A stretch of DNA of 64,000 nucleotides, from contig OY968796.1 of the NCBI GenBank assembly GCA_963695545.1, positions 1,920,001 through 1,984,000 of the forward strand, in the 5' to 3' direction. The position numbers and the translations under genes were made by a program. Shown piece by piece: positions 6,565-42,637 of the stretch (position 1 is its first letter; each line of letters begins with the position of its first letter). This stretch comes from Terriglobia bacterium. GTDB taxonomy: Bacteria; Acidobacteriota; Terriglobia; Acidiferrales; UBA7541. The notes beneath the pieces are model-generated. The model was not told the origin of the DNA. It saw only the letters and a list, made by a program, of their open reading frames with translations, and did not search any database.

Positions 6565-6919
6565 GTATTCGAATACTCACTTAATAGTTGACAGAATTCT
6601 GAATACGCGGTATATTTCGTCATGTTCGCCGCCAGTCAATTCGAATCGTTCCCCATCTCCACTTTTCCTCGCCTCGCCCGAGCATTCAATCCGACCTTTA
6701 TCGCCGCGCATCGCGTAAATCCCGCCCCAATAACCCATTCATTTTCAAATGGATCCACATCCCTTGAAAGGAGTGCGTATCTAGCTGAAAACACTGAACA
6801 TATGTATTCCGTTAAACCCTTTTGTTTCAGTCGATTGTGCACTCCTCATGCATGCTTTTCCTGCAAGTCCCATGTTCGCAGTCTTTTACGAATTGGGTAC
6901 CGGGGGTGTACACCCCTGG
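6565..6919 (+). repeat. Dispersed intergenic element, copy A
   Basis: Shares TTCGAATACTCA, TAGTTGACA, ACTTTTCCnCGCCTCGCC, CTTTTCCTGCAAGTCC and TACCGGGGGTG blocks, in order, with 32880-33210 (-). Confidence 0.85.
6588..6616 (+). promoter_or_regulatory. Sigma70 promoter within element copy A
   Basis: TTGACA-N17-TATATT. Confidence 0.75.
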
Positions 6920-6984
6920 GAAGTCAGAGGAAGGATGGGAGCTGCTTCACCGGAATGGGCGGGACTATCCTCCGCGCGATTTGC

Positions 6985-9123
6985 CTACACCAACCGAGCG
7001 AGAAGCGCCTTCAATTCATCGGGATCGTTGGTTGGCGGCTGGCAGGAGGTTCCGACGCAAACGAGAGCTTGCGCCACATCCGCGCGAACGTGGGGCAACG
7101 TTTCCGCGAGCGCGGGCGGCAGCGCCGCCGCTTCGGCGCCGTTCGGCAAGACGCGCAGAACGACTTTGCCGAAGCGATACGACCCGTTCGCAACCCGTTC
7201 GAGTTGCCCTGCCGTGTCATGGAGCGCCGGGCCCGTGACCACAATTTGCACCGCCCCTCGCGCATGCAGCAGCGCAGCGAGTCCATACGTCGCGGCGTGC
7301 AGTCCGTATTCGGGCGCAATTTTGGCGAATGCATCGAGCGTCGCCGTGCTGCGTTCGCGATACCGCGCGTCGCCCGTGAATTCGTAGAGCCGGTCGAGCA
7401 ATATCGCCGCGGCCGCGTTGCCGCCCGGCGTCGGCGAATCCTGAAACGGTTTTCGACGCACGTCGAGTCCGCCGAGCGGCGCCGCGCTCGCCGGCCGATC
7501 GAAGAAGCCGCCGGCAACAGAATCGGCAAACTGCGCGATCATCACGTCGGCGGCGCGCCGAGCGGCGTCGAAATACCGCCGGTCGAGCGTGGCTTCATAC
7601 GCGTCGAGCAGCGCTAGGCCGGTGAAAACTTGATCGTCGAGCGAACCATCCAGACGCGGCCCGCCTCCGAAGCGATGCGCGAAGCCGCGCTCTGCATTCC
7701 AGGTTTCGCCGAGGATGCGATCGAGCGTGCGCAATGCGAATTGCCCCGCGCGGCGGCCGAGATCGTTGTCGAGCACGCGCGCAGCCGCAAGAAATGCCGA
7801 GCAGAACATCGCGTTCCACGAAACGTAGTGCGTCGTGTCGACAAAAGGAGCCGCGCGCTTCTCGCGCACAGCGAGCAGCTTTTGTTTCGCCGACGCGATC
7901 AGTTCCGCGACGCGCGGCTCGGCCAGTCCAACTTCGCGCGCGATTTCGGCTGGCTCGAACGCGCGGCACAGCGTGTTTTTCAGCGGGTTGTGATGCATCT
8001 GCCCGACCGGCTCGACGCCGTAGAAAATTTCCGCCACGCGCGCTTCTTCCGGATCAAGCGCCGCGCGCAACTCGTCGAGCGTCCAGGTGAAATAGTCGCC
8101 GTCGTCGTCGAGCGTTTGATCGGCGTCCTGGCTCGCATAGAATCCGCCGCGCTCTTGATCCGAAAGCGTGGTCGTAACCCAGCCGATGATCGATTCGGCG
8201 ACCTCGCGGAACAGCGGCTCTCCGGTCACCTGGTAGCCGTGCAGATAGTTTTTGAGCAGTTCGGAATTGTCGTAACTCATTTTCTCGAAGTGCGGCACGC
8301 GCCAGTGCTCGTCGACCGAGTACCGATGAAATCCGCCGGCGAGCTGATCGTAAACACCACCGCGCGCCATGTGCTCGAGCGTAGTTTGCGCGACGTTCGT
8401 AAGTTCCGATTTTGCGGCGCCCGGCGAAGTGGACGCGATGGAAGAAGCCTGGCAGCGATCGAGAATCAGATCGAGCGCCGAAGGATGCGGGAATTTCGGC
8501 GCGCGCCCGAAGCCGCCGTCGCGCGGATCGAAGCGCGCCACGATCGATTCCACCATGCGATCGACAACACCCGCATCGAATGTGCCCGCTGCGCCTTCAA
8601 AACTTTCCGCGCGCGCCACGGCTTGCGAAAGCGCGTCCGCCGCTTCATCGACCTCTTTCCTGCGCGTGCGAAACGCCTCGGCCATCGTCGCGAGAACGCG
8701 CCGGAAACCGGGACGCCCGCCCATGTCGTCAGGCGGAAAATATGTGCCGCCAAAAAATGGCCGCCCATCCGGCAGAAGAAATCCGGTAAGCGGCCAGCCG
8801 CCCTGCCCGGAGACGGCGCTGATGGCGGTTTGATACCGCGCGTCCACGTCGGGCCGCTCGTCGCGATCGACCTTCACCGCGACGAAAAGTTTGTTGATCA
8901 GCGCCGCGATTTCCGGATCTTCGTAGCTTTCGCGGTCGATCACGTGGCACCAGTGGCACCACACCGCGCCGATATCGAGCAGGATCGGGCGATCCTCCTC
9001 GCGCGCCCGCGCAAAAGCTTCGTCGCCCCATTCGTACCACGCCACCGGCTGATGCGCAGCGGAACGCAGATATGGGCTGGCCGAGTGAGCGAGGCGTTGC
9101 GCGGCGGCGTCGGAGTCGGTCAC
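6985..9123 (-). CDS. YyaL/SPATA20-like thioredoxin-domain protein
   Basis: SPYLR..AHQPVAW, WCHWCHV, KVDRDERPDVD, GGWPLT, APKFP and VPHFEKM motifs. Confidence 0.93.
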   Translation of the reverse strand: MTDSDAAAQRLAHSASPYLRSAAHQPVAWYEWGDEAFARAREEDRPILLDIGAVWCHWCHVIDRESYEDPEIAALINKLFVAVKVDRDERPDVDARYQTAISAVSGQGGWPLTGFLLPDGRPFFGGTYFPPDDMGGRPGFRRVLATMAEAFRTRRKEVDEAADALSQAVARAESFEGAAGTFDAGVVDRMVESIVARFDPRDGGFGRAPKFPHPSALDLILDRCQASSIASTSPGAAKSELTNVAQTTLEHMARGGVYDQLAGGFHRYSVDEHWRVPHFEKMSYDNSELLKNYLHGYQVTGEPLFREVAESIIGWVTTTLSDQERGGFYASQDADQTLDDDGDYFTWTLDELRAALDPEEARVAEIFYGVEPVGQMHHNPLKNTLCRAFEPAEIAREVGLAEPRVAELIASAKQKLLAVREKRAAPFVDTTHYVSWNAMFCSAFLAAARVLDNDLGRRAGQFALRTLDRILGETWNAERGFAHRFGGGPRLDGSLDDQVFTGLALLDAYEATLDRRYFDAARRAADVMIAQFADSVAGGFFDRPASAAPLGGLDVRRKPFQDSPTPGGNAAAAILLDRLYEFTGDARYRERSTATLDAFAKIAPEYGLHAATYGLAALLHARGAVQIVVTGPALHDTAGQLERVANGSYRFGKVVLRVLPNGAEAAALPPALAETLPHVRADVAQALVCVGTSCQPPTNDPDELKALLARLV

Positions 9124-9183
9124 GAAGTGGCTCTCTTTCTTTTTGTGGCGCGTGCTTTGTGCGGTGCCCGTGGCGGGCGCGCG

Positions 9184-9636
9184 TTACTGGATCAAATCTT
9201 TCGCACCGCTGTCGTTCGGATCGATCGGCTTGCGCCCGGCAAATCCTTCGTCAGGACGATGCCAGAAGCGGATGCGGTCCTCGCCCAGGCGCCAGCACAG
9301 AAGCACCTCCTCATCATTCAACCGCGCGGGAAAATCCACCAGTCCGATGTCGAGGTCCTTGATGATGCATCCCGCCGCTTGTATACGATCGACCGCGGCG
9401 CGCACCACCTCTTCCAATTGGTCGCGCTCCACGCGTACTCGGCCCAGACTTTCATGCGGCAGCGTCACGCCGCCCATCATCAGAATGCGCTGCGAGACCT
9501 TGCCGAGCGCGTCATCGAGCTCGCTCATTTTCTGCCGGCACTCGACGGCTTCGGCCAGCGTCGGTTCGAGCTCGCGGCGCGCGCGCTCAGCCGATTTCAG
9601 CGTGAAAATCTTCGGTTCTGGCGATTCGTCGGACAT
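9184..9636 (-). CDS. DUF2203 family protein
   Basis: IKDLDIGLVDFP, LCWRLGE..I.FWH and GFAGRKPI; start trimmed to MSDESPEP. Confidence 0.85.
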   Translation of the reverse strand: MSDESPEPKIFTLKSAERARRELEPTLAEAVECRQKMSELDDALGKVSQRILMMGGVTLPHESLGRVRVERDQLEEVVRAAVDRIQAAGCIIKDLDIGLVDFPARLNDEEVLLCWRLGEDRIRFWHRPDEGFAGRKPIDPNDSGAKDLIQ

Positions 9637-9763
9637 ACTGCATTTTCCCCTAACCGGCCGATGTTTGCCAGCGCGCGGCGCGCAGCCTCGCGCTCGTCGC
9701 TTTCGCACCGGCGCTCGCGCCCTCGCGCCGCCGCTTCCGGCGTTTATGGTAGAGTCGCAAACC

Positions 9764-10930
9764 ATGCGCATCTTCGTTCTCGGCACCGGAGCGACGGGCT
9801 CGCTCCTGGCGCAACTCCTCGAGCGGCAGGGACATCGCGTCACTTGCGGCGACCGCGATCCCGAGCGCGGCCGCCGCTTTCTCGGCAAACGCAGCAAAAT
9901 TCCCGTGGTTGCCGTGAACGCGCGCAACTTGTGGGGAATCGTGCGTGCGGCGCGCGGATCGCATTTGCTCGTGAACGCGTCGGCCGCGGTGTTCAACGAA
10001 ATCGCGCTGCGCGCGGCGCTGCGTCTGCGCGCGCACTATCTCGATCTCGCCACGCATCTCGTGAGCCATCCCTTCCGCCCCGAACAATTGCGCTACAACC
10101 GCAAATTCCAATCGAAAGGCCGCGCCGCGGTTTTCGCCGCGGGCGCTTCGCCCGGTTTGACGAATTTGCTCGCCGCGCGCGCGGCCGAGCAGCTCGATTC
10201 AGTGGAATCGATTCGGTTGCGCCTATACGAGAGCACCGAAAGCGACGATCCAGTCTCGCAATGGTCGGCCGAGGTCTCCTTCGATGAAGCCGTTTCGCGT
10301 CCGCCGATCGTCCGCGAAGGACGCTTCCTTTTTGGAAAACGTTTCGGCGAACCGGAAACATTCCGCTTCCCGCGCCCGATCGGCGAAACGCGCGTTGTGC
10401 TCGCCGCGCAGGATGAAGTGTGCATCGTGCCGCACACGCTGAAGTTGCGCGAGATGGACGCGAAGATCGGCGGAAATGAAATGGATCGCTTGCGCCGCTG
10501 GTATCGGCAAGGGAAGTTGCGGCGCTCGCGTGGAATCGTGGCTTCGCGCTTTCCGAAGACGCCCACCCCGAAACAGGTGGCGCGCCTGATTCGCCGCGGC
10601 GTTTTGCACAACGCGCGATTCGCCGCGGCCATCGTGGTTCGCGGAGTGAAAAGCGACGAGCCGCTCGAGATCCGTTGGGACGCCGGCTTTCCGACGCTCT
10701 ATCAGCTTCGGGCCCGCGGACTGCACGCGTCGCCCGTGGCTTACGCCACCGCCGAAATCGCGGCGATGTTCGTGCGACATTTCCCGCGCGAAATTCCGGG
10801 CGTGCACGCGCCGGGCGATTTGCCGGCCGAGGCGCGCCAAGCGATCTTGAATGACGCGCGCGCGCGCGGTTTCAAACTGACGATGAAGACGACGCGCCTG
10901 AAAAAATCCGAAGACGACGAGGAGTACTGA
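9764..10930 (+). CDS. Saccharopine dehydrogenase-like NAD(P)-binding oxidoreductase
   Basis: MRIFVLGTGATG Rossmann motif, HYLDLA and AGASPGLTN; start trimmed from 9143. Confidence 0.85.
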   Translation: MRIFVLGTGATGSLLAQLLERQGHRVTCGDRDPERGRRFLGKRSKIPVVAVNARNLWGIVRAARGSHLLVNASAAVFNEIALRAALRLRAHYLDLATHLVSHPFRPEQLRYNRKFQSKGRAAVFAAGASPGLTNLLAARAAEQLDSVESIRLRLYESTESDDPVSQWSAEVSFDEAVSRPPIVREGRFLFGKRFGEPETFRFPRPIGETRVVLAAQDEVCIVPHTLKLREMDAKIGGNEMDRLRRWYRQGKLRRSRGIVASRFPKTPTPKQVARLIRRGVLHNARFAAAIVVRGVKSDEPLEIRWDAGFPTLYQLRARGLHASPVAYATAEIAAMFVRHFPREIPGVHAPGDLPAEARQAILNDARARGFKLTMKTTRLKKSEDDEEY

Positions 10931-10974
10931 ACGCCGCGCTGGGCAACTGCGCGCGTTAGTTGTTGAACGCTGTT

Positions 10975-12147
10975 TTAGACGTTGAGCAACATCGGTGAGC
11001 CGAGTTTTCCGCGATAGTGCGGACGGAAGCGCGCGACGTTGTACAACTTTTCGACGTCGAGTTTGCGCGGACCAAGCTTCGGATCGGGCAGCGGCACGTG
11101 CGTATATTTACCGCCCTCGAGCGCCACAAGCCGCCCGAAAGTTCCTTGGCGAATCAAATCGGCGGCGATGTTGCCGAACGTGATGGCAACGATTTGGTCG
11201 GTGGAATCGGGCGCGCCGCTGCGCAGTTCGTAGGTCAGATCGGCCAGCATGATTTCATTCCCGGTGCGGCGATGAATCTCATCGCCCAGCGCCTGGCCGA
11301 TGTCCACTTTTTTCTTGTGGCCGAAAGCGTCGGCCTCGCCGTACTCGCTGACGACGCGGCCTTTCCAAACCGCGCCTTCGGATGCAATCACGAACGAGTA
11401 GTGGCTGGAATTTTGGCGCTTATCTTCGGCGAGAATTTCCACCAGGCCTTCGAGATCGAACTCCACTTCCGGAATCACGCAGCGTCCCGAAGTCACGTAC
11501 GCGCTAAAGAGCGCCGTAAATCCGGCGTCGCGTCCAAACATGCGAAACACGCCGATGCGCTCGTGCGAACCGAGCGTGGTGCGCTGGCGCGTGATGATTT
11601 CTTTTGCGCGCGTGATGGCGGTGGAAAATCCGATGCAGTACTCCGTGCCGCGCACATCGTTGTCCATCGTTTTCGGAATGCCGAGAACGTTCACGCCTTT
11701 GCTTTCGAGCGTTTTCGCGAAGCTCAGCGTGTCGTCGCCGCCAATCGCCACCAGACAGCCGAGGCCAAGCCGCTCGATGTTTTCGAGGACGATCGGCGTG
11801 AAATCGAATGTGTCCGGCCCGGTCGCCAAGGTCTTCAAGCGCTCGGGCGAAATGAACGCGGGCAAACCCGATCGCTTCATCTTGAGAGCGTTGGTGCGCG
11901 AGGTGTGCAGAAAAGTTCCGCCGGTGCGGTCAACCGTGCGCGTGTTCTCCCAAGTGAGCGGAAGGATGTAGTCCGCGTCCGGCGCCGGGCCCGGCTTGAG
12001 ATGCGTCAATCCTTCCCAGCCGCGGCGAATGCCAATCACTTCGTAGCCCCAGCTCGTAGTTTGATAAACGACGCTCTTGATCGCGGCGTTGAGGCCGGGA
12101 ACGTCGCCGCCGCCGGTGAGAATGCCGATGCGTTTGGAAGCAGTCAT
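10975..12147 (-). CDS. pfkA: 6-phosphofructokinase (PfkA family, probably PPi-dependent)
   Basis: TGGGDVPGLN, GGTFLHTSR, IGGDDT, PKTMDND and FGRDAG motifs. Confidence 0.92.
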   Translation of the reverse strand: MTASKRIGILTGGGDVPGLNAAIKSVVYQTTSWGYEVIGIRRGWEGLTHLKPGPAPDADYILPLTWENTRTVDRTGGTFLHTSRTNALKMKRSGLPAFISPERLKTLATGPDTFDFTPIVLENIERLGLGCLVAIGGDDTLSFAKTLESKGVNVLGIPKTMDNDVRGTEYCIGFSTAITRAKEIITRQRTTLGSHERIGVFRMFGRDAGFTALFSAYVTSGRCVIPEVEFDLEGLVEILAEDKRQNSSHYSFVIASEGAVWKGRVVSEYGEADAFGHKKKVDIGQALGDEIHRRTGNEIMLADLTYELRSGAPDSTDQIVAITFGNIAADLIRQGTFGRLVALEGGKYTHVPLPDPKLGPRKLDVEKLYNVARFRPHYRGKLGSPMLLNV

Positions 12148-12251
12148 AGGGCCAAGATTTTAACATCGAGTGCGGGAATGCGCGCAAGTCAGGTTGGTCC
12201 GTTGTCGCAGGTTAATTTTCGATGCGCGATTGACGTTGCTTCGGTTCAGCC

Positions 12252-12279
12252 TGTAAGAAAATGCCGCCGTTGGCGTCTA
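12252..12279 (+). promoter_or_regulatory. Putative ECF-sigma promoter
   Basis: TGTAAG-N16-CGTCTA immediately upstream of an ECF sigma gene. Confidence 0.4.
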
Positions 12280-12304
12280 CCTTGGTAGGGAAAGCAAAAG
12301 AGCT

Positions 12305-12835
12305 TTGACGGAAACGATTGGCCAGGACGAGCTGTACCGGGAGGCGGCCGCTACGCACGCTGCGGCAATTGGCCGCCTTGCGCGAGCCTACGAGGCCGAT
12401 CAAGACAAGCGGCGCGACCTTATTCAGGACATTCACGTCGCGTTGTGGCGCAGCTTCGCGAGTTTCAATGGAGCATGTTCGCTGCGCACTTGGATTTACC
12501 GCGTGGCTCACAACACGGCGATCTCCCATGTGCTGCGTGAACGGAGAAGAAACAGGCACACCATGGTGAGTCTTGAAGAAATTGAGAACATGGCCAGTGC
12601 GATTGACACCGAACGGGCGGCGCGCCAGCAAGAAGCGCTAGAGCGCCTCCTGGCGATGATCCGGACGCTGAACCCAATTGATCGGCAAGTGATCCTTTGC
12701 TATTTGGAGGGCATGGACGCGGTTTCCATTGGAGAGATTGCCGGTTTATCCGCGGGAAACGTGGCAACCAAGATTCATCGCATTAGGAACGTGTTGTCTT
12801 GCCGGTTTCATGAAGGAGGGCGTGATGACAAATGA
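12305..12835 (+). CDS. ECF-type RNA polymerase sigma factor
   Basis: DLIQDI..ALWRS, TWIYRVAHN (region 2); region 4 LEG...EIAGLSAGNVATKIHR; TTG start. Confidence 0.9.
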   Translation: MTETIGQDELYREAAATHAAAIGRLARAYEADQDKRRDLIQDIHVALWRSFASFNGACSLRTWIYRVAHNTAISHVLRERRRNRHTMVSLEEIENMASAIDTERAARQQEALERLLAMIRTLNPIDRQVILCYLEGMDAVSIGEIAGLSAGNVATKIHRIRNVLSCRFHEGGRDDK

Positions 12836-13409
12836 GCCCGATCTGACGGAGGTGAAAAGTATCTGGCAGAACCAGCCTGTAGAGGACAGAACGATGCCAC
12901 TCGGCGAGGTTCGGAGAAGGGTTGAGCGCCTCGAAAGCACGGCGAGCAAATTTTATTGGGTTGGCTGGTTGACAGTTGTCGGCGTGACAGCAATCTTCGT
13001 ACGTTATCTGTTCCGCGCCGCCAACTTGCCTGAGCGGGTCGGGTCCGCCCTGTTCATCGTCGGCGCGGGACTCTTCGCGTGCCAACTCTTTCTGTTTCGC
13101 AAGGAGCCGAATGGCTCAGTCGCGGGAGGTGCGGAGCCGCTTGCGAGCGTCAGATTCTACCGAAGTCTACTGCAGCGGCAACGCGACTTTCACAGTGGCC
13201 TGTGGTTCTGGTCCAAACTAATCATTACTTCGACCGGTGCCTGCCTCTATCTTTCCGGTCTCGTCCCGGCGGCACCGGGGGGTATCGCCAGATGGGGCTG
13301 GCTGTATGTGGTGCTTGTCGTCGCGCTTGGCTACGGGCTGGTGTCGAACCTCCGAGAGGCCCGGAAATACCAGCGTGAAATCGATGCCTTGGACGCGATC
13401 AACGGGTAA
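12825..13409 (+). CDS. Membrane protein, probable anti-sigma factor
   Basis: Overlaps the sigma stop, AGGAGG RBS, N-terminal 'KSIWQ', about four TM segments. Confidence 0.7.
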   Translation: MTNEPDLTEVKSIWQNQPVEDRTMPLGEVRRRVERLESTASKFYWVGWLTVVGVTAIFVRYLFRAANLPERVGSALFIVGAGLFACQLFLFRKEPNGSVAGGAEPLASVRFYRSLLQRQRDFHSGLWFWSKLIITSTGACLYLSGLVPAAPGGIARWGWLYVVLVVALGYGLVSNLREARKYQREIDALDAING

Positions 13410-13440
13410 AAGAGCAGTGTGCGTCCCGTGCTGCGCGAGC

Positions 13441-14136
13441 CTAGCCGCGGCGCTTCGAGCCAGCGAGTGATGTGAATTCGTACAGCGGAAATACTTCGCG
13501 GAAAATCTTCGCGGCGTCTCCGGCAAATGTGGGGCGCGTGGCGGCTTTGGCGGGCATTTTTCGGCGCACGATCCACGCGAGAAGTTTTTTCCAATCGGCG
13601 GGATCGAGAGGCCAGCCGGAGTGTTTGGTCCACTCGCGTTTTTCCATCGAGTACCAGTAGCTTTCGTAGCGGCGGCCGAGGCGCCGTTTTTGTTGCGCGA
13701 GAAATTTGGGCCGAGCGGCGACGCGCGGGCGGGCGATTGCCTCGATCGCGGAGGTTTTGTCGCGCGACTCGGCGTAGATACGGAAGCCGGCGGTCGCAAA
13801 TTTCGGCCCGAGCCCGACGTACAGCTCACCGCCGTGGGAATTGCGTCCGCAGAAAAAAAGATACATTTGAGTGCGATACGGAGTTTTGTCGCGCGCGAAG
13901 CGGATATCGCGATTGATGCGCGAGAAATTCGTTCCGGTGCGGCCGTCGATCTCGAAGTTCGGGTCGAGATGCAGCGCCGCCGGCGTCAGCGCGTCAAGCA
14001 TCGCGCGGAACGGATCGACCACCGACGAACGATACCATTCGCGATTCTCGTCCATCCAGGCTTTGGCATTGTTTCGTTCGAGCTCGCGGAAAAATCGGAG
14101 CGTGCCGTCGGAGAAAATGGCGTTCTGTGATTTCAT
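13441..14136 (-). CDS. DUF2461 family protein
   Basis: FFREL..NN.K.W and SRINRDIRFARDKTPY motifs. Confidence 0.85.
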   Translation of the reverse strand: MKSQNAIFSDGTLRFFRELERNNAKAWMDENREWYRSSVVDPFRAMLDALTPAALHLDPNFEIDGRTGTNFSRINRDIRFARDKTPYRTQMYLFFCGRNSHGGELYVGLGPKFATAGFRIYAESRDKTSAIEAIARPRVAARPKFLAQQKRRLGRRYESYWYSMEKREWTKHSGWPLDPADWKKLLAWIVRRKMPAKAATRPTFAGDAAKIFREVFPLYEFTSLAGSKRRG

Positions 14137-14154
14137 GGCAACACTCCTCAGGCG

Positions 14155-31167: not shown

Positions 31168-32730
31168 TCATCGCCCATTGATCCGCAAATCGCCGCCGGT
31201 CATTTCCGTCGGCTTCGGCACGCCGAGGACGCCGAGCAGCGTGGGCGCGATATCGCGCAAAGAGCCGCCGGGGCGCAGACCGGATGCGCCGTCGTCGGAG
31301 AGCAGCACGAACGGAACTGGATTCGTGGTGTGATAAGTGTGCGCGCCGCCGGTGACCGGATCGATCATGGTTTCGGCGTTGCCGTGATCGGCGGTGATGA
31401 TCCACGCGCCGCCGCGCGGCTTGAGCGATTGATAGATGCGGCCGAGGCCTTCGTCCACGGCTTCGACGGCTTTGATGGTGGGCTCGAGTTTACCGGAGTG
31501 GCCGACCATATCGGCGTTGGCATAATTCATGATGATGGCGTCGAAGTCGCCCTTTTCGATGGCTTTGATCACGGCGTCGGTGATGCCGGCGGCGCTCATC
31601 TCGGGTTTCAAATCGTAGGTGGCAACTTTCTGCGACGGCACGAGCACGCGTTCTTCGCCGGGAAACGGTTTTTCCACGCCGCCATTGAAAAAATATGTGA
31701 CGTGCGCGTATTTTTCGGTTTCGGCCACGCGCAAATTGCGGAACTCGAGGCCCGCGAAAACGTTCGCGAGAATCTGCTCGAGTTTTTCGGGGCTGAGCAC
31801 GTGTTGCAGCCAGGGCCACTTTTTGTCGTATTGCGTCATGCCCACGTAGAAGAGTTTGGTGGGACGCGCGGGGTCGGCGAAATCGTGGAAGTCCGGCTCG
31901 GCGAGCGCGCGCGTCATCTGGCGGGCGCGATCGGCGCGGAAATTGAAAAAAATCACGGCGTCTTCGTCGCGAATCGGGCCAACGGCGGGCGCCGCGGCTC
32001 CCGCGCCTTGCGTGATCACGACGGGCAGCGTGAATTCGTCGGTGGTGCCCTGCTCGTAGCTGCGCAGAATGGCCGCAATCGGATCGGGCGAACGCAGCTC
32101 CGATTCGCCGTGGGCCACGGCGCGATAGGCGCGCTCGACGCGCTCCCAGCGATTGTCGCGATCCATCGCATAATAACGGCCGGAGAGGCTGGCGATTCTG
32201 CCCAAGCCGTACTCGCGCAGCTTCTGCTGAATCTGGCGCAGATAATCGACGCCGCTATTTGGCGCGGTGTCGCGCCCATCCATGAAGCAATGAATGAAAA
32301 CGCGCTCGACTTTGTTTTCGCGCGCCATGCGCAGCAGCGCATAGAGATGATTCAAGTGCGAATGCACGCCGCCGTCGGAGACAAGACCCATGAGGTGCAA
32401 TTGCCGCTCGCGCCCGCGCGCCATGGCGCGCAACAGCAGATCATTCTGGTAGAAAGCGCCGGAAGCGATCATTTGATCGATGCGCGTGATGTCCATGTGC
32501 ACGATGCGCCCGGCGCCGATGTTCAGGTGACCGACTTCGCTATTTCCCATTTGGCCCTCGGGCAGGCCGACGGCGGGGCCCGAAGTTTGGATCAAGGTGT
32601 TGGGATATTGTTTCAGCAGGGAATCGTAAGTGGGCTTGCGCGCGAGAGCGATCGCGTTGCCTTTGATCGCCGGTGAGTAGCCCCAGCCATCGAGCACGGT
32701 CAACACAATCGGTTTCGGCCGCTTCGCCAT
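31168..32730 (-). CDS. gpmI: 2,3-bisphosphoglycerate-independent phosphoglycerate mutase
   Basis: [45 protein letters not shown] and ADHGN; start at MAKRPKP. Confidence 0.97.
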
Positions 32731-32879
32731 AGGATTCCAGAATACACAAACCCACCGCCAAAATGAAATTGTACCGGTGCGGTGGCCTGACGCAGAATCC
32801 GAGAGTTTGGCGGTAACGCGATGACTGTGCGGGACTTCTTTCTGTTCCGGCGCGTGAGCGGACGGACTGGGATTGAGGT

Positions 32880-33210
32880 GGGGGATACCCACCCCCGGTA
32901 TGTTTTGCGTAAGAGCGGCAGACAAAGGACTTGCAGGAAAAGAGTAACAAAGAGTGCGGAACAGATTGAGAACAATGGATTTGCGGGTGTTTATTTTCAA
33001 TGAAGTGCGCACTCTTTTGAGCGTGTGCGCATTAGTTTGAAAATAAAAGGGATATTGGGACCCGAGAAAACGGATGTGGAGGGATGCGGGGGCGGCGGCG
33101 AGGCGGGGAAAAGTCGAGGAGGGCAACAATTCGAATGCAGCGCGAGTGAACATTCAGAAGCATAGCATGAATTGAAACATGTGTCAACTACTGATTGAGT
33201 ATTCGAAATA
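32880..33210 (-). repeat. Dispersed intergenic element, copy B
   Basis: Collinear homology blocks with 6565-6919; internal inverted repeat at 32990-33047. Confidence 0.85.
33159..33187 (-). promoter_or_regulatory. Sigma70 promoter within element copy B, pointing into gpmI
   Basis: TTGACA-N17-TATGCT with extended -10 TG. Confidence 0.75.
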
Positions 33211-33219: not shown

Positions 33220-33681
33220 TTACGCGTCGACGATCTTGTGCGCGAGGCGGCCGAACATCGGATATGCCGACCATTTGCCGTGGTAGGCCTTGATGGAATA
33301 CACGATCGCCAGGATAAGGTTGCCGAACCAGCCGATCATGAAGACCAGCCAGAGCGCGCCAAATCCCAGGAAGAATGCCAGAGGAGGAGCGTTGTTCGAC
33401 GCGGCGTTCGGATGCTGATGAATGAGTGTGGCGAACATCGTGGCGAACATGACCATCATCCCGAGCATGATAATCACGAGATATGCGGCCTGCCAGAGAA
33501 GCGCCTGCATGGCGTGAAACGCGACGAAACGCGAATTGCGTTTGACGAGATAAATTACCAGCGGCGGTACGAAGCCCGCGAAAAACTGGAGCAAATGGGC
33601 CAGCATGGCGAAGTTGCGTTCGTCTTGTGTGGGTTCGGCGCCGGCGGACTGCACGCTTGAATGATCCGGTGTCTGGCTCAT
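33220..33681 (-). CDS. DUF4870 family membrane protein
   Basis: ERNFAMLAHL, PLVIYL, FVAFHAMQAL and YPMFG. Confidence 0.85.
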   Translation of the reverse strand: MSQTPDHSSVQSAGAEPTQDERNFAMLAHLLQFFAGFVPPLVIYLVKRNSRFVAFHAMQALLWQAAYLVIIMLGMMVMFATMFATLIHQHPNAASNNAPPLAFFLGFGALWLVFMIGWFGNLILAIVYSIKAYHGKWSAYPMFGRLAHKIVDA

Positions 33682-33769: not shown

Positions 33770-35077
<1,308 letters not shown>

Positions 35078-35208
35078 TCACCCCTTCCGCGAACTGAATA
35101 AATTGTTCAGGAATGCAGCAGAAAGTTTAGCGTCTCTCGCCGTCCGGGGAAAGCGCGATTACGGAAAGATTCGGGCCGCGAATAATTTGAGGCGGAAATC
35201 GCCGAAGG

Positions 35209-36441
35209 CTACTCGGGTTCCTCGAGCATGGATTCATCGCGGATCACCACGACCACGCCGCTTTCGGTGACGTGATATTTCTTGCGGTCTTCTTCGGCGT
35301 CGTAGCCGATCACGGTGCGCTCGGGGAGATTCACGTGGCGATCCACGATGGCGTTGCGGATTTTCGAGTGCCGTCCGATATTCACGTGATTGAAGACGAT
35401 CGAGTTTTCAACTTCGCTGTAACTATTGATGCGCACGTCGTACCCAAGCACCGATCCCTTCACGCGCCCGCCGGAAATGATGCTGCCCGGGGCAACGATC
35501 GAGTCCAGAGCCACGCCCATGCGCTCCGGATCGGCGAACACGAATTTCACGGGCGGATATTGCTGCTGCCAGGTGCGCAGCGGCCAGCTTTTGTCGTACA
35601 AATTGAACACCGGCGAGACGCTGATCAAATCCATGTTCGCCGCGTAATAGGCGTCGAGCGTGCCAACGTCGCGCCAGTAATGCTCGTGCGGCTTGTTCTC
35701 GTCCTCGAAATTGTAGGCGTACACGCGATACTTCGAGAGGATGCGCGGCAGAATATCCTTGCCGAAATCGTGCGTGGAGCCGGGCTGTTCGGCGTCGGCG
35801 ATCAGCGTGGGCAGCAGGAATTGCGTGTTGAAAATGTAGATGCCCATCGACGCGTTCACTTTCGCGGGATTGTGCCGCGAACGCTTGGGCTGCGCGGGCT
35901 TTTCCTGGAAGCCGACCACGCGCCAGTGCGCGTCGGTCTCGATCACGCCGAAGCGGCCGGCCGCTTCTTCCGGATCGATTTCAAACGTGCCCACCGTGCA
36001 ATCGGCGCCGGCGTCGACGTGCTGCTGAAGCATTTTTCCGTAGTTCATTTTGTAAATGTGATCGCCGGAAAGCACGATGATGTAAGTGGAGCGATCGCTG
36101 CCGATGGAATAAATATTCTGATAGATCGCGTCAGCCGTTCCCAAATACCAATTCGCGGAGACGCGCATCTGCGGCGTGAGGATCTCGATGAAATCGCCGA
36201 GGCCCACGATGCCGGTCCATCCGCGGCGGATATGGCGATTCAGACTGAGCGCTTTATATTGGGTGAGAACGTAAACGCGGCGCAGATCGCTGTTGATGCA
36301 GTTGGAAAGCGTGATGTCGACGATGCGATAAATTCCGCCGAAGGGCACGGCGGGCTTGGCGCGGTCGCGCGTCAATGGCCATAGCCGCTCGCCCTGGCCG
36401 CCGGCCAGGATGATCCCAATGGCGTCACGCATCAGCGACAT
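35209..36441 (-). CDS. glgC: Glucose-1-phosphate adenylyltransferase
   Basis: LAGGQGERL.PLT..RAKPAVPFGG, GTADA, GDHIYKM, DFGKD and YWRDVGT. Confidence 0.96.
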   Translation of the reverse strand: MSLMRDAIGIILAGGQGERLWPLTRDRAKPAVPFGGIYRIVDITLSNCINSDLRRVYVLTQYKALSLNRHIRRGWTGIVGLGDFIEILTPQMRVSANWYLGTADAIYQNIYSIGSDRSTYIIVLSGDHIYKMNYGKMLQQHVDAGADCTVGTFEIDPEEAAGRFGVIETDAHWRVVGFQEKPAQPKRSRHNPAKVNASMGIYIFNTQFLLPTLIADAEQPGSTHDFGKDILPRILSKYRVYAYNFEDENKPHEHYWRDVGTLDAYYAANMDLISVSPVFNLYDKSWPLRTWQQQYPPVKFVFADPERMGVALDSIVAPGSIISGGRVKGSVLGYDVRINSYSEVENSIVFNHVNIGRHSKIRNAIVDRHVNLPERTVIGYDAEEDRKKYHVTESGVVVVIRDESMLEEPE

Positions 36442-36601
36442 GGCCGTACCTCAGCGCCGCGCGCCCGCGGCGTAGGATCCCAAGCAGCACACATTCTAGT
36501 TCGGTCGTCGGCGCTTTGCGAGCGCCTTTCCGCGCGAACTTCCCACGCCGCCGGGCCGATTCATGCTATGAATTCATCGCCATGCGAACGGGGCTGCAAT
36601 T

Positions 36602-38224
36602 TTGAATCGGCGAGAATTCATCGCAAGAGGCGGTCTGCTTGCGAGCGCGGCGCTGCCGATGCTGTCGCGGGCTTCGCGCGCGCGAGAGAAATTTGCGGCC
36701 GCGGCCGCGGCCGATTCATCGCTGGCGCCAGCGGAATCGCGAATCTCATTCGAGACAACCGATTCGCTGCTGGCGAATGCTTATCGCCACGCGCTCAGTG
36801 TTCTGGCCGCGAATGTGATGGTGCTGCCGTACTACTCTCGCCCCGTGCTGATCGAAGGCGGCGTGTATCAGCGGCTTTCCGGCGAAGGCGGTCCGCACGA
36901 AGGCCTGATTTACAGCTCGATTCGCGCTGACGTGGCGCGCAACAATCAAATGGCTTTTTTCGCGCTGCAGCGCGAAGACGGACTCATCCCGCACGCCATG
37001 AAATCCGATGAGATCGGCTGGCGGCATCTTCAACTCGCCGTGCCGCTGGTGGCCACGGCCTGGGAGCTTTCGCGGCAAACCGGCGATAGCGAACTTTTGG
37101 AGACGGCTTACAACGGTTGGAGCCGCTTCGATGCCTGGCTGCGTCGCTATCGAGACACGCTGCACACCGGACTGTGCGAAGGTTTCTGCACGTTCGACAC
37201 GGGGCAGGACAACAGTCCGCGCTGGGCAGGAATTCCAAATAGTTGCCCGGATGACGACGCGCGCAAGTGCCCGCCGCTCGCGTCGCTGCCGCGGCTGTGT
37301 CCCGATATGTCGGCCACGGTTTACGGCGGGCGCGTGGCGCTTGCGGCGATGGCTCGCGCGCTAGGCAAGTCCGGCGAGGCCGATCGCTGGCTTGCGGATG
37401 CCGACGCCATCCGCGCCGCTATCTTGAATCGACTCTACTCGGCTGACGACGCGGCTTTTTACGATGTCGACGCACAAAATCAATTCGTGCGCGTTCGTGG
37501 CGAGGTGATCCCGCGCGTTCTAGGCGAACACGTGGTAGACGCGAAACTCTTCGCCACGATCTACGATCGCCAGATTCACAATCCGGCGGCGTTCTGGGCG
37601 CCTTATCCCTTGCCCTCGATCGCGCTCGACGATCCGAAATTTGTGCGCCCGATTCCCGCCAATTCCTGGGGCGGAGCCTCGCAAGCCCTAACGGCCTTGC
37701 GCGCCACGCGCTGGATGGAGCACTACGGCAAGGCGGCCGATTTCGCTCAACTCATGCAGCAATGGGTCACCGCGATTTGCCGCGCGGGCGATTTCTATCA
37801 GCAGATCGATCCACTCAGCGGCGTCTCCACGCGGGATCCCGGGAAATATTCACCAGCGGCGCTGGTGCTCTTCGATTTCACGTGGCGCCTGGCGGGCGTT
37901 CGCCGCGTGGAAGATAATTTGGAGTGGAATGTTCGTCCGCCCGCGGCCCCGACGAGCGCGAGTTACAAACTGCAAGTAACGCCCACGCGAATCGCCGAGT
38001 TGCGCTACGCCTCAGGCGCGGCAGAACTTTCCATCAATGGGAAGCTTTTGTGCCGCACCAGCAGCACTGTTCGCTTGCTCACTGATCTCGATGGAAATAT
38101 TCACGCCGCGACGGGCATCGCGCCGGAAGTAACGAACGTGGAAATCCGCTGCTTCGCGAGTCACGCTCAAAGATTTTCAGTCGAGCCGAACGCAAGGATC
38201 GAATTGCCGGCGCCGCGGTCCTGA
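36602..38224 (+). CDS. Tat-exported (alpha/alpha)6 glycoside hydrolase (GH63/MGH1-like)
   Basis: NRREFI twin-arginine signal, DTGQDNSPRW, YPLPSIA and NSWGG. Confidence 0.7.
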   Translation: MNRREFIARGGLLASAALPMLSRASRAREKFAAAAAADSSLAPAESRISFETTDSLLANAYRHALSVLAANVMVLPYYSRPVLIEGGVYQRLSGEGGPHEGLIYSSIRADVARNNQMAFFALQREDGLIPHAMKSDEIGWRHLQLAVPLVATAWELSRQTGDSELLETAYNGWSRFDAWLRRYRDTLHTGLCEGFCTFDTGQDNSPRWAGIPNSCPDDDARKCPPLASLPRLCPDMSATVYGGRVALAAMARALGKSGEADRWLADADAIRAAILNRLYSADDAAFYDVDAQNQFVRVRGEVIPRVLGEHVVDAKLFATIYDRQIHNPAAFWAPYPLPSIALDDPKFVRPIPANSWGGASQALTALRATRWMEHYGKAADFAQLMQQWVTAICRAGDFYQQIDPLSGVSTRDPGKYSPAALVLFDFTWRLAGVRRVEDNLEWNVRPPAAPTSASYKLQVTPTRIAELRYASGAAELSINGKLLCRTSSTVRLLTDLDGNIHAATGIAPEVTNVEIRCFASHAQRFSVEPNARIELPAPRS

Positions 38225-38270
38225 TCCACGCAACGGAACTTCAGCGATTTCGCAACGGACAAGGCGAATG

Positions 38271-40424
38271 CTAATTCGCGCCGGTGTCTCCGGCCAGGCC
38301 GCGATCCTCGAGCATCGGCTGAATGCTCGGCTTCGCGCCCAGCCACTTCTCGTAAATTGTTTCAAGGTCCGCGGTGTTGCCTCGCGAAAGCACCATGCTG
38401 CGGAAACGATCGCCGTTGGCGCGCGTCAAGCCGCCGTTATCCTCGAACCATTTGTAAGCGTTATCGTCCAGCATCTCGCTCCACAGATACGCGTAGTAAC
38501 CCGCATCGTACCCCTCGGCCCAAATGTGCAGAAAATAGCTCGAGCGATAACGCGGCGGCACCGTGGCGATTGCTAGATGCGTGTTCTCCAGTGCCTGTTT
38601 TTCAAACGCGTCTGGATCTTCCAGAGGCGCGCTGGCGGGCAGCGTATGCCACTGCATATCAAGTTCCGCCGCGGCCAGCAATTCCGTCAGCATATATCCC
38701 TGATTGAAAGTTTTCGATTTCTTGATCTTGGCCACCAGTTCCGGTGGCATCGGCGCGCCTGTCTGATAATGCGTCGCATAGTGACTGAATACAGCCGGAT
38801 CGCTCGCCCAGTGCTCGTTAAATTGTGAAGGGAATTCGACGAAGTCGCGCGGCACATTCGTGCCAGCGAGGCTGGGGTATTCCGTGTCGCCGAACATGCC
38901 ATGCAACGCGTGGCCGAACTCGTGGAACATGGTGGTCACGTCGTCGAAGCTGACGAGAGCGGGCTGGCCGGCGACGGGCTTGCTGAAATTAGCGACGTTG
39001 TAGATCACCGGCAGCATCCCCAACAGCTTCGACGGGCTGACGAAGAAATCCATCCACGCGCCGCCGTTTTTGTTGTCGCGCCGGAAATAATCGCAATACC
39101 ACAGCGCCAGCGGCTTGCCGTCCGCGTCGGTAATCTCAAACACGCGCACGTCCGGGTCGTAGACCGGGATGTCGTGCCTTTCTTTGAACGTCAAGCCGTA
39201 TAGTTGATACGCCGCGTAGAACACGCCGTTCTGCAGCACGTTGTTCAACTCGAAGTAGGGTTTCACCTGCGCGTCGTCCAAATCGTATTTCGCCTTGCGC
39301 ACTTGCTCGGAATAAAAATTCCAATCCCACGGCTGCAATTGGAAGCCGCCGCCCTGCGTATCGATCAGCGCTTGAATTTCCTTGGCTTCGCTGGCCGCGT
39401 TGGCCGTGGAGGCCGGCACCAGCGCATCCATGAACTTCAGCACCGCGTCCGGCGTCTTGGCCATTTGATCCTGCAGATCCCACGCCGCGAAGTTCGGAAA
39501 CCCGAGCAGTTGCGCTTTCTGGGCGCGAAGCTGGGCCAGCCTCGCGATCGTCGAGCGCGTGTCGTTCGCGTCGCCGTGCTCCGTGCGATTCCATGAATCT
39601 TCAAAAAGCTTTTGCCGCGTGTCGCGATCGCCCAGAAAAGTCAGATCCGGCTGCTGCGTGGTATTTTGCAGCGAAATCAGATAGCCGGTTTGCTTATGGT
39701 CCGTCGCGGCTTGCGCCGCGGCCGCGATCTGCGCGTCGCTCAATCCCGCCAGAGCGCTCTTGTCGCTGGTCTCAAACGCCGCCGCGCCGGTTGCCGCGAG
39801 CAATTTTTCCATGAACGCGTTCGAGAGCGTCGATTCCTCTTCGTCCAGCTTTTCGAGCTTGGCCTTGTCGGCGTCTGAAAGATTTGCCCCGGCCTTCACG
39901 AATTCCAGGTAGTCGAACTCCACCAGGCGCAGCGACTCAGGATCGAGATTGAGCGAAGCGCGCTCGTCGTAGATCGCTTTTACGCGCGCGAATAATTTTG
40001 CGTTCAGAAAGATCGCATCCTGCAGGGCCGCCAGCTTCGGCGCCTCGATATCCTGCACCTTTTGCAGCGCCGGATCCGTGTTCGCGCCGGTGACGCCGTT
40101 GAACACCAGTTGCACGCGATTCAGCAGTTGCCCGGTCTTCTCGAACGCCACAATGGTGTTCTCGAACGTTGGCGCGGCTGGATCGTCCGCAATCGCCTGC
40201 ACCTCCTTCAGTTGCTGCGTCATGCCCGCTTCCATCGCCGGCTGATAATCCGCGTCCTTGATCTTGTCGAATGGCGGCGCGTGAAATGGCAACGCGCTCG
40301 GCGCGTAAAACGGATTCGACGGACCGAAGGCCTCTTGCGCGTTCGCAATGCACGCCACTCCGGCGCCAAGCGCAATCGCACATGCAATCGAAGCAATTCG
40401 CATACCCAGCATCGTGATCTTCAT
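38271..40424 (-). CDS. dcp: M3 family peptidyl-dipeptidase Dcp (exported)
   Basis: HEFGHALH, RDFVEFPSQFNE, GGAWM and YDAGYYAYLWSE; signal peptide. Confidence 0.92.
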   Translation of the reverse strand: MKITMLGMRIASIACAIALGAGVACIANAQEAFGPSNPFYAPSALPFHAPPFDKIKDADYQPAMEAGMTQQLKEVQAIADDPAAPTFENTIVAFEKTGQLLNRVQLVFNGVTGANTDPALQKVQDIEAPKLAALQDAIFLNAKLFARVKAIYDERASLNLDPESLRLVEFDYLEFVKAGANLSDADKAKLEKLDEEESTLSNAFMEKLLAATGAAAFETSDKSALAGLSDAQIAAAAQAATDHKQTGYLISLQNTTQQPDLTFLGDRDTRQKLFEDSWNRTEHGDANDTRSTIARLAQLRAQKAQLLGFPNFAAWDLQDQMAKTPDAVLKFMDALVPASTANAASEAKEIQALIDTQGGGFQLQPWDWNFYSEQVRKAKYDLDDAQVKPYFELNNVLQNGVFYAAYQLYGLTFKERHDIPVYDPDVRVFEITDADGKPLALWYCDYFRRDNKNGGAWMDFFVSPSKLLGMLPVIYNVANFSKPVAGQPALVSFDDVTTMFHEFGHALHGMFGDTEYPSLAGTNVPRDFVEFPSQFNEHWASDPAVFSHYATHYQTGAPMPPELVAKIKKSKTFNQGYMLTELLAAAELDMQWHTLPASAPLEDPDAFEKQALENTHLAIATVPPRYRSSYFLHIWAEGYDAGYYAYLWSEMLDDNAYKWFEDNGGLTRANGDRFRSMVLSRGNTADLETIYEKWLGAKPSIQPMLEDRGLAGDTGAN

Positions 40425-40452
40425 CGTTTTCGTCCTTCCGCGTCGCTCGAGT

Positions 40453-41550
40453 TCAATCTTCAAACGGTTTCCTCGCCGGAGATTCCGCCGGCGCCGCTCG
40501 CAAGTATTGGACGGGCCAGCTCATCGATTGTTTCAATTCGCGTGCCGCCCGCAGCACCCAATATGGATCGCGCAAAAATTCCCGCGCCATGAAAACCAGA
40601 TCGGCGTGATCCTTCGCCAGAATCTCCGCGACCTGCTCTTTCGTCTCAATCAATCCCACCGTGCCGGTCTTCACTCCCGCGTCGCGCCGAATCCGCGCGG
40701 CAAAGGGAACCTGAAATCCCGGTCCTGCGACGACCTCCTGATCCTGCACAAGCCCCGCTGATGAGCAATCGACTAGATCCACGCCCAGCGGCGCAAGTTG
40801 CTTCGCCAGTTCCACGGCTTGATCGAGATCCCATCCGCCTTTCTTCCAATCCGTCGCGGAAATGCGAATGAAGAGCGGCAGGCTCTCCGGTATCACCGCG
40901 CGAATCGCGGCTACCACCTCGTACGCGATACGCGTGCGGTTCTCGAACGAGCCGCCATACTCGTCCTTCCGGAAATTGCTGAGCGGCGAAAAAAATTCGT
41001 GCAGCAGATAGCCGTGCGCGGCGTGAATTTCAATCACGCGAAATCCCGCTTCAAGCGCCCGCTGCGCCGCCTGCGCGAACGCCGCCACGACGCCGCGAAT
41101 CCCTTCGATCGTAAGCGCCTGCGGCATCGGGTAGTCATCCGAGTACGCAACAGCGCTCGGCGCCACCGGCACCCAGCCGCCTTCGCTCACCGGAATCGCG
41201 CCGTAGCCCAACCACGGCGTGCGCGTGCTGCCCTTGCGCCCCGCATGCGCCAGTTGCATTCCCGGCACCGCTCCCTGGCTTTTCAGAAATCGCACGATGC
41301 GCGCCAGAAATTCAATGTGCGCATCCTTCCAGATTCCCAAATCCTCCGGACTGATCCGCCCCTCCGGCGTCACCGCGGTCGCTTCGGTAAATACCAGGCC
41401 CGCCCCTCCCACCGCCCGGCTCCCCAAATGCACCAGGTGCCATTCGTTGGCAAACCCGTCGATGCTCGAGTATTCGCACATCGGCGACACAACCACGCGG
41501 TTCGCCAAAGTGATCCCGCGAATCGTAACTGGCTCGAATATTTGCGCCAT
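40453..41550 (-). CDS. NADH:flavin oxidoreductase (Old Yellow Enzyme, YqjM/NamA-like)
   Basis: NRVVVSPMCEYS, QLAHAGRK, HAAHGYLLHEF and YGGSFENR. Confidence 0.92.
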   Translation of the reverse strand: MAQIFEPVTIRGITLANRVVVSPMCEYSSIDGFANEWHLVHLGSRAVGGAGLVFTEATAVTPEGRISPEDLGIWKDAHIEFLARIVRFLKSQGAVPGMQLAHAGRKGSTRTPWLGYGAIPVSEGGWVPVAPSAVAYSDDYPMPQALTIEGIRGVVAAFAQAAQRALEAGFRVIEIHAAHGYLLHEFFSPLSNFRKDEYGGSFENRTRIAYEVVAAIRAVIPESLPLFIRISATDWKKGGWDLDQAVELAKQLAPLGVDLVDCSSAGLVQDQEVVAGPGFQVPFAARIRRDAGVKTGTVGLIETKEQVAEILAKDHADLVFMAREFLRDPYWVLRAARELKQSMSWPVQYLRAAPAESPARKPFED

Positions 41551-41625
41551 GTTTTCCCTTTTCAGATTTGCGCGATTAGGCGCCGGCTGCGGCATTACGA
41601 GGACCTTCAGCCTCGCCGAAACATC

Positions 41626-42261
41626 TCACTTCGGTGGAGTCGCCTCGTCGATCTCACGCACAATCTCTTTCGCGCGCGATGCGTCGCTCGGAATAACGAA
41701 GATTCTTCGCAAGCCGCCATCCGCGCCGTCCGTGCGAGCACGAATATTGTTCTCGCGCAAAGACGACTCAACCATCGAGGCCTGATTTTCGCTCTTCCCG
41801 GACCAGATTTCCGCCGTGGCGTCTTCAGGAAACCAATCCTTCGAGTCCCACTCGTCGTCGGATTCCGCGGGAGCCGGCTCATCATCCTCGGCCGGCAATT
41901 CCATCACCGACGAATCCACGTTTTCGTCGAAAGGATCCAAGCGATCTTTGTAAATGATTTCCCTGGCTCGATCGTAGGAAACCGCCGGCACGCCGATCTC
42001 AAAGTATTGACCCAGTCCGGTTAGAAATTCCCGTCCTCGCTCATTCACTCGAAAGGGAATCCCAGCGTCCTTGAGCTGCGCACAAACCGCGGCGAACTCT
42101 TCTTGATCTTGGCCGCCCCAAACGCCACGGAGGTCCGCATCGGATAAAGATCCAGCGGATTCGGCGCCGGGTGCCGGCAAGCTGTCCACTAAATCCACGC
42201 CGCAATCCGAGCAGTGCGTGACACCGTCCACATACTCGGCTTTGCATTGCGGACAAATCAT
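41626..42261 (-). CDS. Zinc-ribbon plus DUF2007-like domain protein
   Basis: CPQC..EY...CSDC N-terminus; two 'L..AGI/NI' DUF2007-like repeats. Confidence 0.7.
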   Translation of the reverse strand: MICPQCKAEYVDGVTHCSDCGVDLVDSLPAPGAESAGSLSDADLRGVWGGQDQEEFAAVCAQLKDAGIPFRVNERGREFLTGLGQYFEIGVPAVSYDRAREIIYKDRLDPFDENVDSSVMELPAEDDEPAPAESDDEWDSKDWFPEDATAEIWSGKSENQASMVESSLRENNIRARTDGADGGLRRIFVIPSDASRAKEIVREIDEATPPK

Positions 42262-42371
42262 CAGGCGTTCGACGTTATCATTCCGCGGTAATCACGGCAA
42301 TCCTTTCCGAATCCTCCGCGGGCGACAAGTCTCTAGTGTCCGCCCTCGGTATCGAACCAATTTCCACAGGC

Positions 42372-42637
42372 TATTCGAATAACCGAAGCATTATCATTGA
42401 CATACACGGAAAAAGAGTGCTAAGATCTTGCGTGAGCTGCAAACGCATTCCCGCGCCCGACAAGTCGCTTGATGCCAACGCCGCCGTCGGTCCTTTTCTC
42501 GCCCATAACCCGTGTGGAATGAGCAGTTCTGAAAAATCGCATTTTAACCCCTTTAGAACGAGCACTTCTGGCGCAAAGGACTTAAAGTCCTTTAGAATGA
42601 GCAGTTCCAAAAAACACCCGGGGGTAGGGGGGTACCC
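42372..42637 (+). repeat. Dispersed intergenic element, copy C (divergent), with 3x39-bp tandem repeat
   Basis: TATTCGAATA palindrome, TTGACA-N18-TAAGAT, units starting 42507/42546/42585, terminal CACCCGGGGGTAGGGGGGTACCC. Confidence 0.75.

Follow-up and report, generated by a model that had tools for sequence, protein, structure and literature searches.

What are the three AT-richer intergenic stretches that lie among unrelated genes within 64 kb of the genome of a Terriglobia bacterium (contig OY968796.1, positions 1,920,001 to 1,984,000, forward strand; this whole stretch of 64,000 nucleotides (nt) is called the window below)? A first-pass annotation had described these stretches, A, B and C, as copies of one modular element, transcribed and probably high-copy, which might be a structured RNA family, a non-autonomous mobile element or an array of recombinase or DNA-binding sites. 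We find that they are gene-less copies of a one-gene cassette, whose complete form consists of a promoter, a translated leader, a box array, a terminal G-run and then a gene for a CCCH zinc-finger/helical-hairpin protein of ~140 amino acids (aa); the partner gene is located outside the window. With a probability of roughly 0.5, this protein is an alternative small terminase and the dispersed copies are pac-like sites, which together would hijack a resident phage head cluster or related phages. More tentatively, we suggest an integrase-free minimal parasite of a gene transfer agent (GTA) of Acidiferrales, made of one TerS-like gene and ~100 packaging-start sites that would make the chromosome as a whole a set of origins for directed transduction and serve as landing pads for foreign genes. 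The proposal builds on the anatomy of the repeat, its linkage to the gene and the coupling of leader and gene, their co-occurrence among genomes, a protein tail shared with the cluster, and the conservation of the cluster itself.

The sequence blocks reported for A and B were recovered where they had been placed: TTCGAATACTCA and TAGTTGACA are identical between the two copies, an 18-mer agrees at 17 of 18 positions, a 16-mer is exact, and both copies have the G-rich end. The alignment of A with B scored 183, compared with a maximum of 43 over 200 dinucleotide shuffles. The layout that had been proposed for all three copies holds as a collinear arrangement in A and B; C shares the promoter module and the G-run, but its box array differs. 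Since shuffled sequences reach the scores of A with C (29, equalled by 6 of 200 shuffles) and of B with C (33, by 3 of 200), C is not collinear with A and B, and it represents a second subtype beside subtype AB.

A profile hidden Markov model (HMM) was built from A, B and C, run on the 4.16-Mb source genome (G000; the related genomes G001-G004 were used for comparison) at E<=1e-3 and iterated twice. The three copies alone found 102 loci, the iterated model ~112 and the reversed genome gave no match, which bears out the suspected high copy number and the view of non-autonomous copies dispersed among unrelated genes. Elements measure 250-600 bp, and the cassette with its gene ~0.8 kb. The modules follow in the order TTCGAA palindrome, predicted sigma70-type promoter, start codon at the predicted +1, IHF-like boxes and G-run. 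The promoter module is recognisable in 104 of 112 loci, of which 103 have an ATG or GTG 34-36 nt from the start of the -35 element, and a genome search found the promoter pattern nowhere outside copies. Promoter modules without a recognisable box array or G-run lie at G000 C1 1310787 (-) and 1205173 (-). A DnaA-box-like word precedes the palindrome in 31 of 90 copies and in none of 90 control windows. The linker after the start codon is C-rich (C>G in 99 of 100 copies); in one gene-bearing copy (G000 C1 3770896-3771604, -) a linker block of ~125 nt is repeated two to three times with the frame still open. Boxes of AB copies are laid out as + - + + (39 of 72 copies) or + - + (24 of 72) at spacings of 35 or 45, 40 or 50-51, and 26-27 or 37, and thus vary in steps of 10-11 bp, one helical turn, while C copies carry three or four direct boxes ~39 nt apart. 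Every copy ends in the G-run, often as a symmetric GGGG...CCCC, beyond which similarity fades unevenly, leaving ragged ends. Identity between nearest neighbours has a median of 69% and a maximum of 85%, and therefore no recent burst has occurred.

The phased boxes favour one of the natures first considered, an array of protein-binding sites, and they may be sites for an IHF-like host factor, a reading that draws on their likeness to the IHF consensus, on their placement and on three HU/IHF genes in G000. The AB box matrix has 131 matches outside copies, compared with 32-78 for five column-permuted matrices, and 61 of its outside matches are intergenic, compared with 10-20 for the permuted ones. 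Single boxes lie at -40 and -60 of two of four sigma54-type promoters, and one adjoins the 3′ end of tRNA-Pro. In one of two viral matches, a phage contig, a C-type box stands between ORFs that we presume from their motifs to be an HNH gene and a terS-terL-like pair, a place that would be a cos region. Nucleotide patterns of the element gave 0, 0, 2 and 1 loci in IMG/VR; L074 of that database carries boxes, and its neighbouring genes are without packaging annotation.

A gene linked to some copies, of the kind the first-pass annotation had hoped for, does exist, but it encodes a small zinc-finger protein and not a nuclease, recombinase or reverse transcriptase (RT). G000 has four genes of this family (near 29.8 kb, 524.8 kb, 3745.3 kb and 3770.4 kb), and each of them starts 38-56 nt past a G-run that has its own orientation; in two of them the stop of the leader overlaps the gene start, in one it adjoins it, and the leader of the remaining one is broken. 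The family is large (664 homologue matches; 2,481 clusters at 50% identity), multi-copy with up to 11 members per genome, and patchy, occurring in 57 of 251 genomes of the class, and the same cassette arrangement recurs across Terriglobia. Among 94 homologue loci with 600 nt of upstream sequence (out of 108 fetched), a TTGAC promoter lies upstream in 66, compared with 6 of 175 other genes taken as control. Of the 46 loci in which promoter, start and G-run are all present, 45 have an open leader frame, and the remaining frames are open in 1 and 12; in 42 of the 45 open-leader loci the leader stops within -25 to +4 nt of the gene start or inside the gene, or is fused to it. No further gene recurs in more than 6 of the 94 loci. 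In a sister family (L143, L147, P0324, P0335, P0338, P0341, P0362) the zinc-finger protein has the translated G-run as its N-terminus (TPQGGGG), and leader and gene are therefore fused there.

Gene and repeat also occur together. Because the promoter pattern is genus-specific (48 matches in G000, 26 in G003 and at most 4 in any other of 251 genomes), the terminal pattern was chosen for counting in 71 genomes of the host family, with a cut-off of at least 11 matches that exceeds every control total. Of the 34 genomes with the gene 18 reached the cut-off, and of the 37 without it none did; counts are inflated by overlapping matches and related genomes are not independent. The 16 gene-positive genomes below it include G003, despite its 26 promoter-pattern matches.

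The frame opened by the start codon runs across the element, a feature beyond the first description. Among the 90 copies with start and end both recognised (13 were dropped for want of an end and one of a start), 67 of 72 AB copies, 16 of 16 C copies and one of two unclassified copies keep it open as far as the G-run, while the other frames are free of stops in 4 and in 10 of the 72 AB copies and in none of the C copies. The same block is translated in either of two frames among AB copies (36 vs 29), and the C core gives a dN/dS of ~0.89 (15 copies), from which we conclude that stops have been purged but the peptide is not conserved. The open leader is probably kept to carry ribosomes across the C-rich, Rho-sensitive stretch into the gene, and not for its peptide. 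In-frame fusion to downstream genes was rejected as a function, because only 21 of 76 leaders are in frame, which is the chance level, with no genome-wide enrichment.

The same data bear on whether the element is a structured non-coding RNA or a functional small-protein family, a view that is hardly credible and largely refuted already. It can point to a strong promoter, to an invariant 9-bp inverted repeat in AB copies, to the single frame of all 16 C-type copies and to a 156-nt metatranscriptome contig over the 3′ half of B, which is a weak hint (one study, strand unknown, DNA possible). Against it, none of 14 predicted pairs covaries, the Rfam covariance models hold no family that matches the element (their only match in the window is a tRNA-Met at 60414-60487, -), the AB copies use two frames for one block, the C core has the dN/dS ratio given above, and the 10-bp spacing steps indicate phasing at the level of DNA. 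The open-frame signal and the single contig over B are all that suggests transcription of the copies.

Alternatively, the copies could be domesticated regulatory units, portable strong promoters with leaders that drive downstream genes under the zinc-finger protein and a TTCGAA-binding factor, which we regard as improbable. Promoter and open frame are indeed retained in copies whose nearest neighbours are only 69% alike in the median, 76 of 103 copies share the orientation of the gene downstream, with a tandem-gap split of 38 vs 17, and sites A and C are common to three species. However, 27 of 103 copies, A included, point into convergent genes yet retain the open frame, the intergenic gap types that hold copies equal the background, and dispersal, upstream cargo and the terminase-like tail described below are left unexplained.

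A possible source of packaging functions is a ~27-kb phage-like cluster at G000 C1 3386666-3413276 (L257, L259), which has host-like codon scores and is interrupted by an insertion sequence (IS). PHROG profiles matched its large terminase TerL (phrog_979, E 4.6e-41), major head protein (phrog_14242, E 1e-6) and a lytic enzyme, and gave no match for five of the eight cluster proteins queried; PF03237 detected TerL in G000 and G003, and PF03354 overlooked that of G000. Of the family's 71 genomes 47 carry the capsid gene, as do 19 of 25 genera, almost always as a single copy and mostly at 59-92% identity, and no tyrosine integrase lies within the cluster. Having the conserved single-copy head genes with host-like codons by which GTAs are judged, the cluster is a candidate gene transfer agent of Ca. 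Acidiferrales.

This cluster and the cassette share a protein end. PVIWDMPGPDRE is the C-terminal end of a 92-aa cluster protein and of one zinc-finger protein. Among 59,113 six-frame open reading frames (ORFs), three contain the strict motif [IVL][IVWF][WFM]D[MILG]P[GRS]P.[RP], namely two zinc-finger proteins and the 92-aa protein, and a looser form occurs in 69 of 120 zinc-finger homologues, while the family HMM aligns with the 92-aa protein by the tail only (E 2.4e-5 against two sequences). A search with a single query detected the 92-aa protein in 9 of 71 genomes; six of the seven orthologue sequences inspected show the tail, and TerL directly follows the orthologue in 6 of 8 loci outside G000, the usual terS-terL order. 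The 92-aa protein is likely a small packaging protein of the phage-like cluster. Small terminases consist of a DNA-binding domain, a helical hairpin and a C-terminal part, and in lambda and P22 the C-terminus binds TerL, according to PMC9611059. The structure model of the zinc-finger protein predicts a similar order, with a CCCH finger where phage TerS has a helix-turn-helix (HTH) at the N-terminus, then a helical hairpin (70-115) and a tail, at ~16 kDa (TerS range 15-21 kDa). Fold searches with this model in PDB Foldseek and BFVD gave nothing at E<=0.001, and the ESM Atlas returned Acidobacteriota clusters without names, a weak lead to DUF5763 and faint resemblances to phage proteins at TM<0.45. 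The His-x-His hallmark of HUH enzymes is not conserved in the protein.

Neighbouring DNA differs between the two sides of a copy. Codon-atypical genes make up 24% of upstream and 2% of downstream neighbours, compared with 8% genome-wide; upstream genes are less often in Pfam (10 vs 16 downstream in a 20-copy sample), and GC content is lower upstream in 78 of 100 copies and 26 of 34 homologue loci. Upstream genes include toxin-antitoxin-like pairs, a DpnI-family gene (Pfam match) and ORFs that are presumably GIY-YIG- and Y1-transposase-like, judging from their motifs; cargo of these kinds lies at copies G000 30217, 515657, 524438, 1426485, 1473981, 2099788 and 3771360. Three species, G000, G003 and G004, differ at site A in the AB variant and in the DNA upstream of it, and site C holds C-type copies in the same genomes, with ~2 kb of extra upstream DNA in G004. 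The empty-site comparison first suggested succeeded in so far as copy B is absent from the orthologous site in the congeners G001, G002 and G003, but these sites are too diverged for an exact junction; contigs covering copies contain no clean excision or empty-site joint. These histories fit exchange at resident copies and import on the upstream side. Paralogous glycoside hydrolase genes of ~700 aa, with 79% identity to each other, lie downstream of two C-type copies, at 136817 (+) and 4065585 (-), which suggests duplication of the element together with the downstream gene.

On the small-terminase reading, IHF would bend or wrap the box array, the zinc finger would bind a site in the element, the hairpin would oligomerise, and the tail would bind TerL of the resident head cluster or of related phages and thereby recruit the terminase. 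Packaging would start at the G-run and run through boxes and promoter into upstream DNA, and delivered fragments would recombine in recipients, often at resident copies. Packaging with recombination would explain the mosaic copies, the ragged ends without target duplications and the foreign genes upstream.

A number of observations speak against this proposal. The model does not explain how a packaged end arrives at a new site. The DNA-binding domain of known TerS proteins is an HTH and not a zinc finger, as stated in PMC9611059. Neither Pfam nor PHROG assigns the zinc-finger protein to a family, and its fold matched that of no TerS (VIA best Z 6.6, generic bundles); protein scans of IMG/VR found no homologue (one spurious match), and one query protein had no match among phage or plasmid records. 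The tail motif was composed after the tail had been noticed, 51 of 120 homologues are without its looser form, and of the four proteins in G000, the one at 524778 carries an acidic tail in its place. In G000, whose cluster contains an IS, and in G003 the 92-aa gene does not adjoin terL, and the scanned stretch of the cluster yielded no copy with the element model. Of the 18 repeat-rich genomes, 6 gave no match to the capsid gene; the 12 that have it make up the same proportion as in the family at large (47 of 71), and so no dependence of the repeat on this gene is shown. G001 (83% complete) has copies, and the zinc-finger gene was not found in it. Moreover, a G-run lies upstream in 74 of 94 homologue loci and in 59 of 175 other genes, so that alone it discriminates poorly.

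Some of the evidence would also suit a transposon-like cassette moved by another enzyme, for example an HUH enzyme or a recombinase acting one-ended from the G-run, with the zinc-finger protein as accessory or autoregulator and the gene-less copies as deletion derivatives of the cassette; we hold this to be doubtful. Multi-copy gene and repeat co-occur and are patchy by genus, B is missing from three congeners, and a Y1-transposase-like ORF, as we read it from its motif, lies near 6 homologue loci. IHF-like arrays are common at mobile-element ends, and one-sided cargo fits one-ended transposition. However, no enzyme gene is consistently linked in the 94 loci (Y1, Y2 and IS110 were not searched genome-wide), none of five tyrosine-recombinase matches in G000 adjoins a copy, and PF00078 found no RT in 5 repeat-rich genomes, with the positive control detected. 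The absence of terminal inverted repeats and target duplications, noted already for the three copies, was confirmed over 90 copies with no excess over cross-pairs: no inverted match of at least 9 was found (mean 5.2 vs 5.6 in cross-pairs), and flanking direct repeats average 6.0 vs 6.0 in the control, the ends being ragged. Movement by another enzyme also leaves the tail common to a TerL-adjacent protein unexplained. A retroelement was rejected on the missing PF00078 and because the promoter, upstream of +1, is copied along with the element. A dif-like site and a G-quadruplex/R-loop origin were further natures considered for it.

Table 1. Features of copies A, B and C and of a gene on the cargo side of A (window positions)
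Feature	Positions	Strand	Basis
Copy A (subtype AB), TATTCGAATA palindrome upstream of -35	6566..6575	+	sequence
Copy A, predicted sigma70-type promoter: TTGACA, 17 nt, -10	6588..6616	+	
Copy A, leader frame, ATG at predicted +1, open through element, antisense into next gene	6622..7617	+	
Copy A, IHF-like box array, boxes in both orientations	6730..6892	+	
Copy A, terminal G-run / GGGG...CCCC pseudo-palindrome; putative cut or initiation site	6898..6917	+	
234-aa codon-atypical gene upstream of A (cargo side); other DNA here in G003, G004	5777..6481	-	
Copy B (subtype AB), TTCGAA palindrome and -35 TTGACA	33182..33210	-	
Copy B, leader frame from ATG 33153, running in frame into gene starting 32730	31168..33153	-	
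Copy B, IHF-like box array	32908..33056	-	
Copy B, terminal G-run	32880..32900	-	
Copy C (subtype C), DnaA-box-like ATTTCCACA and TATTCGAATA palindrome	42360..42381	+	
Copy C, predicted sigma70-type promoter	42397..42426	+	
Copy C, leader frame from GTG, open through element	42432..42872	+	
Copy C, three direct boxes, ~39-nt period, with AAAGGACTTAAAGTCCTTT palindrome	42506..42609	+	
Copy C, terminal G-run	42617..42637	+	

From its sequence we take the gene starting at 32730 (-), downstream of copy B, to be gpmI. Between eno and copy B lies a 144-aa gene (33220-33654, -) that G001, G002 and G004 share and G003 lacks. The AAAGGACTTAAAGTCCTTT palindrome is the target of IS1595-type insertions in other C copies. 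Three of the five IS1595-like elements in G000, a family we presume from the transposase, lie within C-type copies, one lies in a lone box and one elsewhere; two unrelated insertions share the target CTTAAAG, which is duplicated, and one G001 copy (L061) is likewise split (G000 C1 343331-346900, 245200-248062, 3685917-3688900 and 2003300; L061). Long tRNAs with anticodon TAT lie near two related IS1595-like transposases, at G000 C1 344768-344860 (-) and 2007231-2007327 (+).

If the packaging proposal is true, the repeat spreads by hijacked DNA packaging, with no transposase, integrase, RT or replicase, which would make it a selfish element within a GTA-like system and show that such packaging can become sequence-directed; it would also account for one-sided hotspots of gene acquisition in a soil lineage that is abundant and uncultured. 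Whatever the mechanism, an unannotated protein family is tied to a high-copy repeat, selection maintains a translated but sequence-free leader, and a phage head cluster is conserved in Ca. Acidiferrales, which would be a previously unnoticed GTA if our reading holds. Full-text searches, with subscription journals and supplements outside their coverage, returned no description of element, protein or cluster.

Among known repeats, bacterial MITEs (miniature inverted-repeat transposable elements) such as Correia/NEMIS, RUP and ERIC resemble ours in being intergenic and AT-richer and in carrying a promoter, an IHF-type site and open frames, as described in PMC2229807. The repeat differs in having no terminal inverted repeats or target duplication, in its ragged ends and length of 250-600 bp, and in a partner gene that does not encode a transposase. 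REPIN/RAYT systems likewise have numerous intergenic copies that are non-autonomous, a few linked partner genes, persistence over long times and targeting by IS; here, however, the partner is not an HUH (Y1) transposase and has no Pfam match, no hairpin covaries, the element has a promoter, a translated leader and a box array, and the multi-copy partner always stands behind a copy. The repeat is thus neither a REPIN nor a MITE, the latter as delimited in PMC2229807.

The likeness to SaPI/PICI satellites would be functional, in that a TerS-like protein encoded outside the helper would recruit helper TerL to its own site and adjacent chromosomal DNA would be transferred. Such satellites redirect packaging with their own TerS, and lateral cotransduction starts at pac sites. 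By the criteria of integrase, att sites and replicase the cassette is not a satellite: it has no integrase, att sites, primase/replicase or multi-gene island, and no recurrent linked gene in 94 loci. It is a ~0.8-kb unit with ~100 gene-less chromosomal sites and a zinc finger instead of an HTH, and its probable helper is a vertically inherited cluster. That cluster is GTA-like in being resident and nearly always single-copy, in 19 of 25 genera, with host-like codons and no internal tyrosine integrase. GTAs package DNA near-randomly, whereas the cassette would impose sequence-directed starts; it would be a parasite of this candidate GTA and not the cluster itself.

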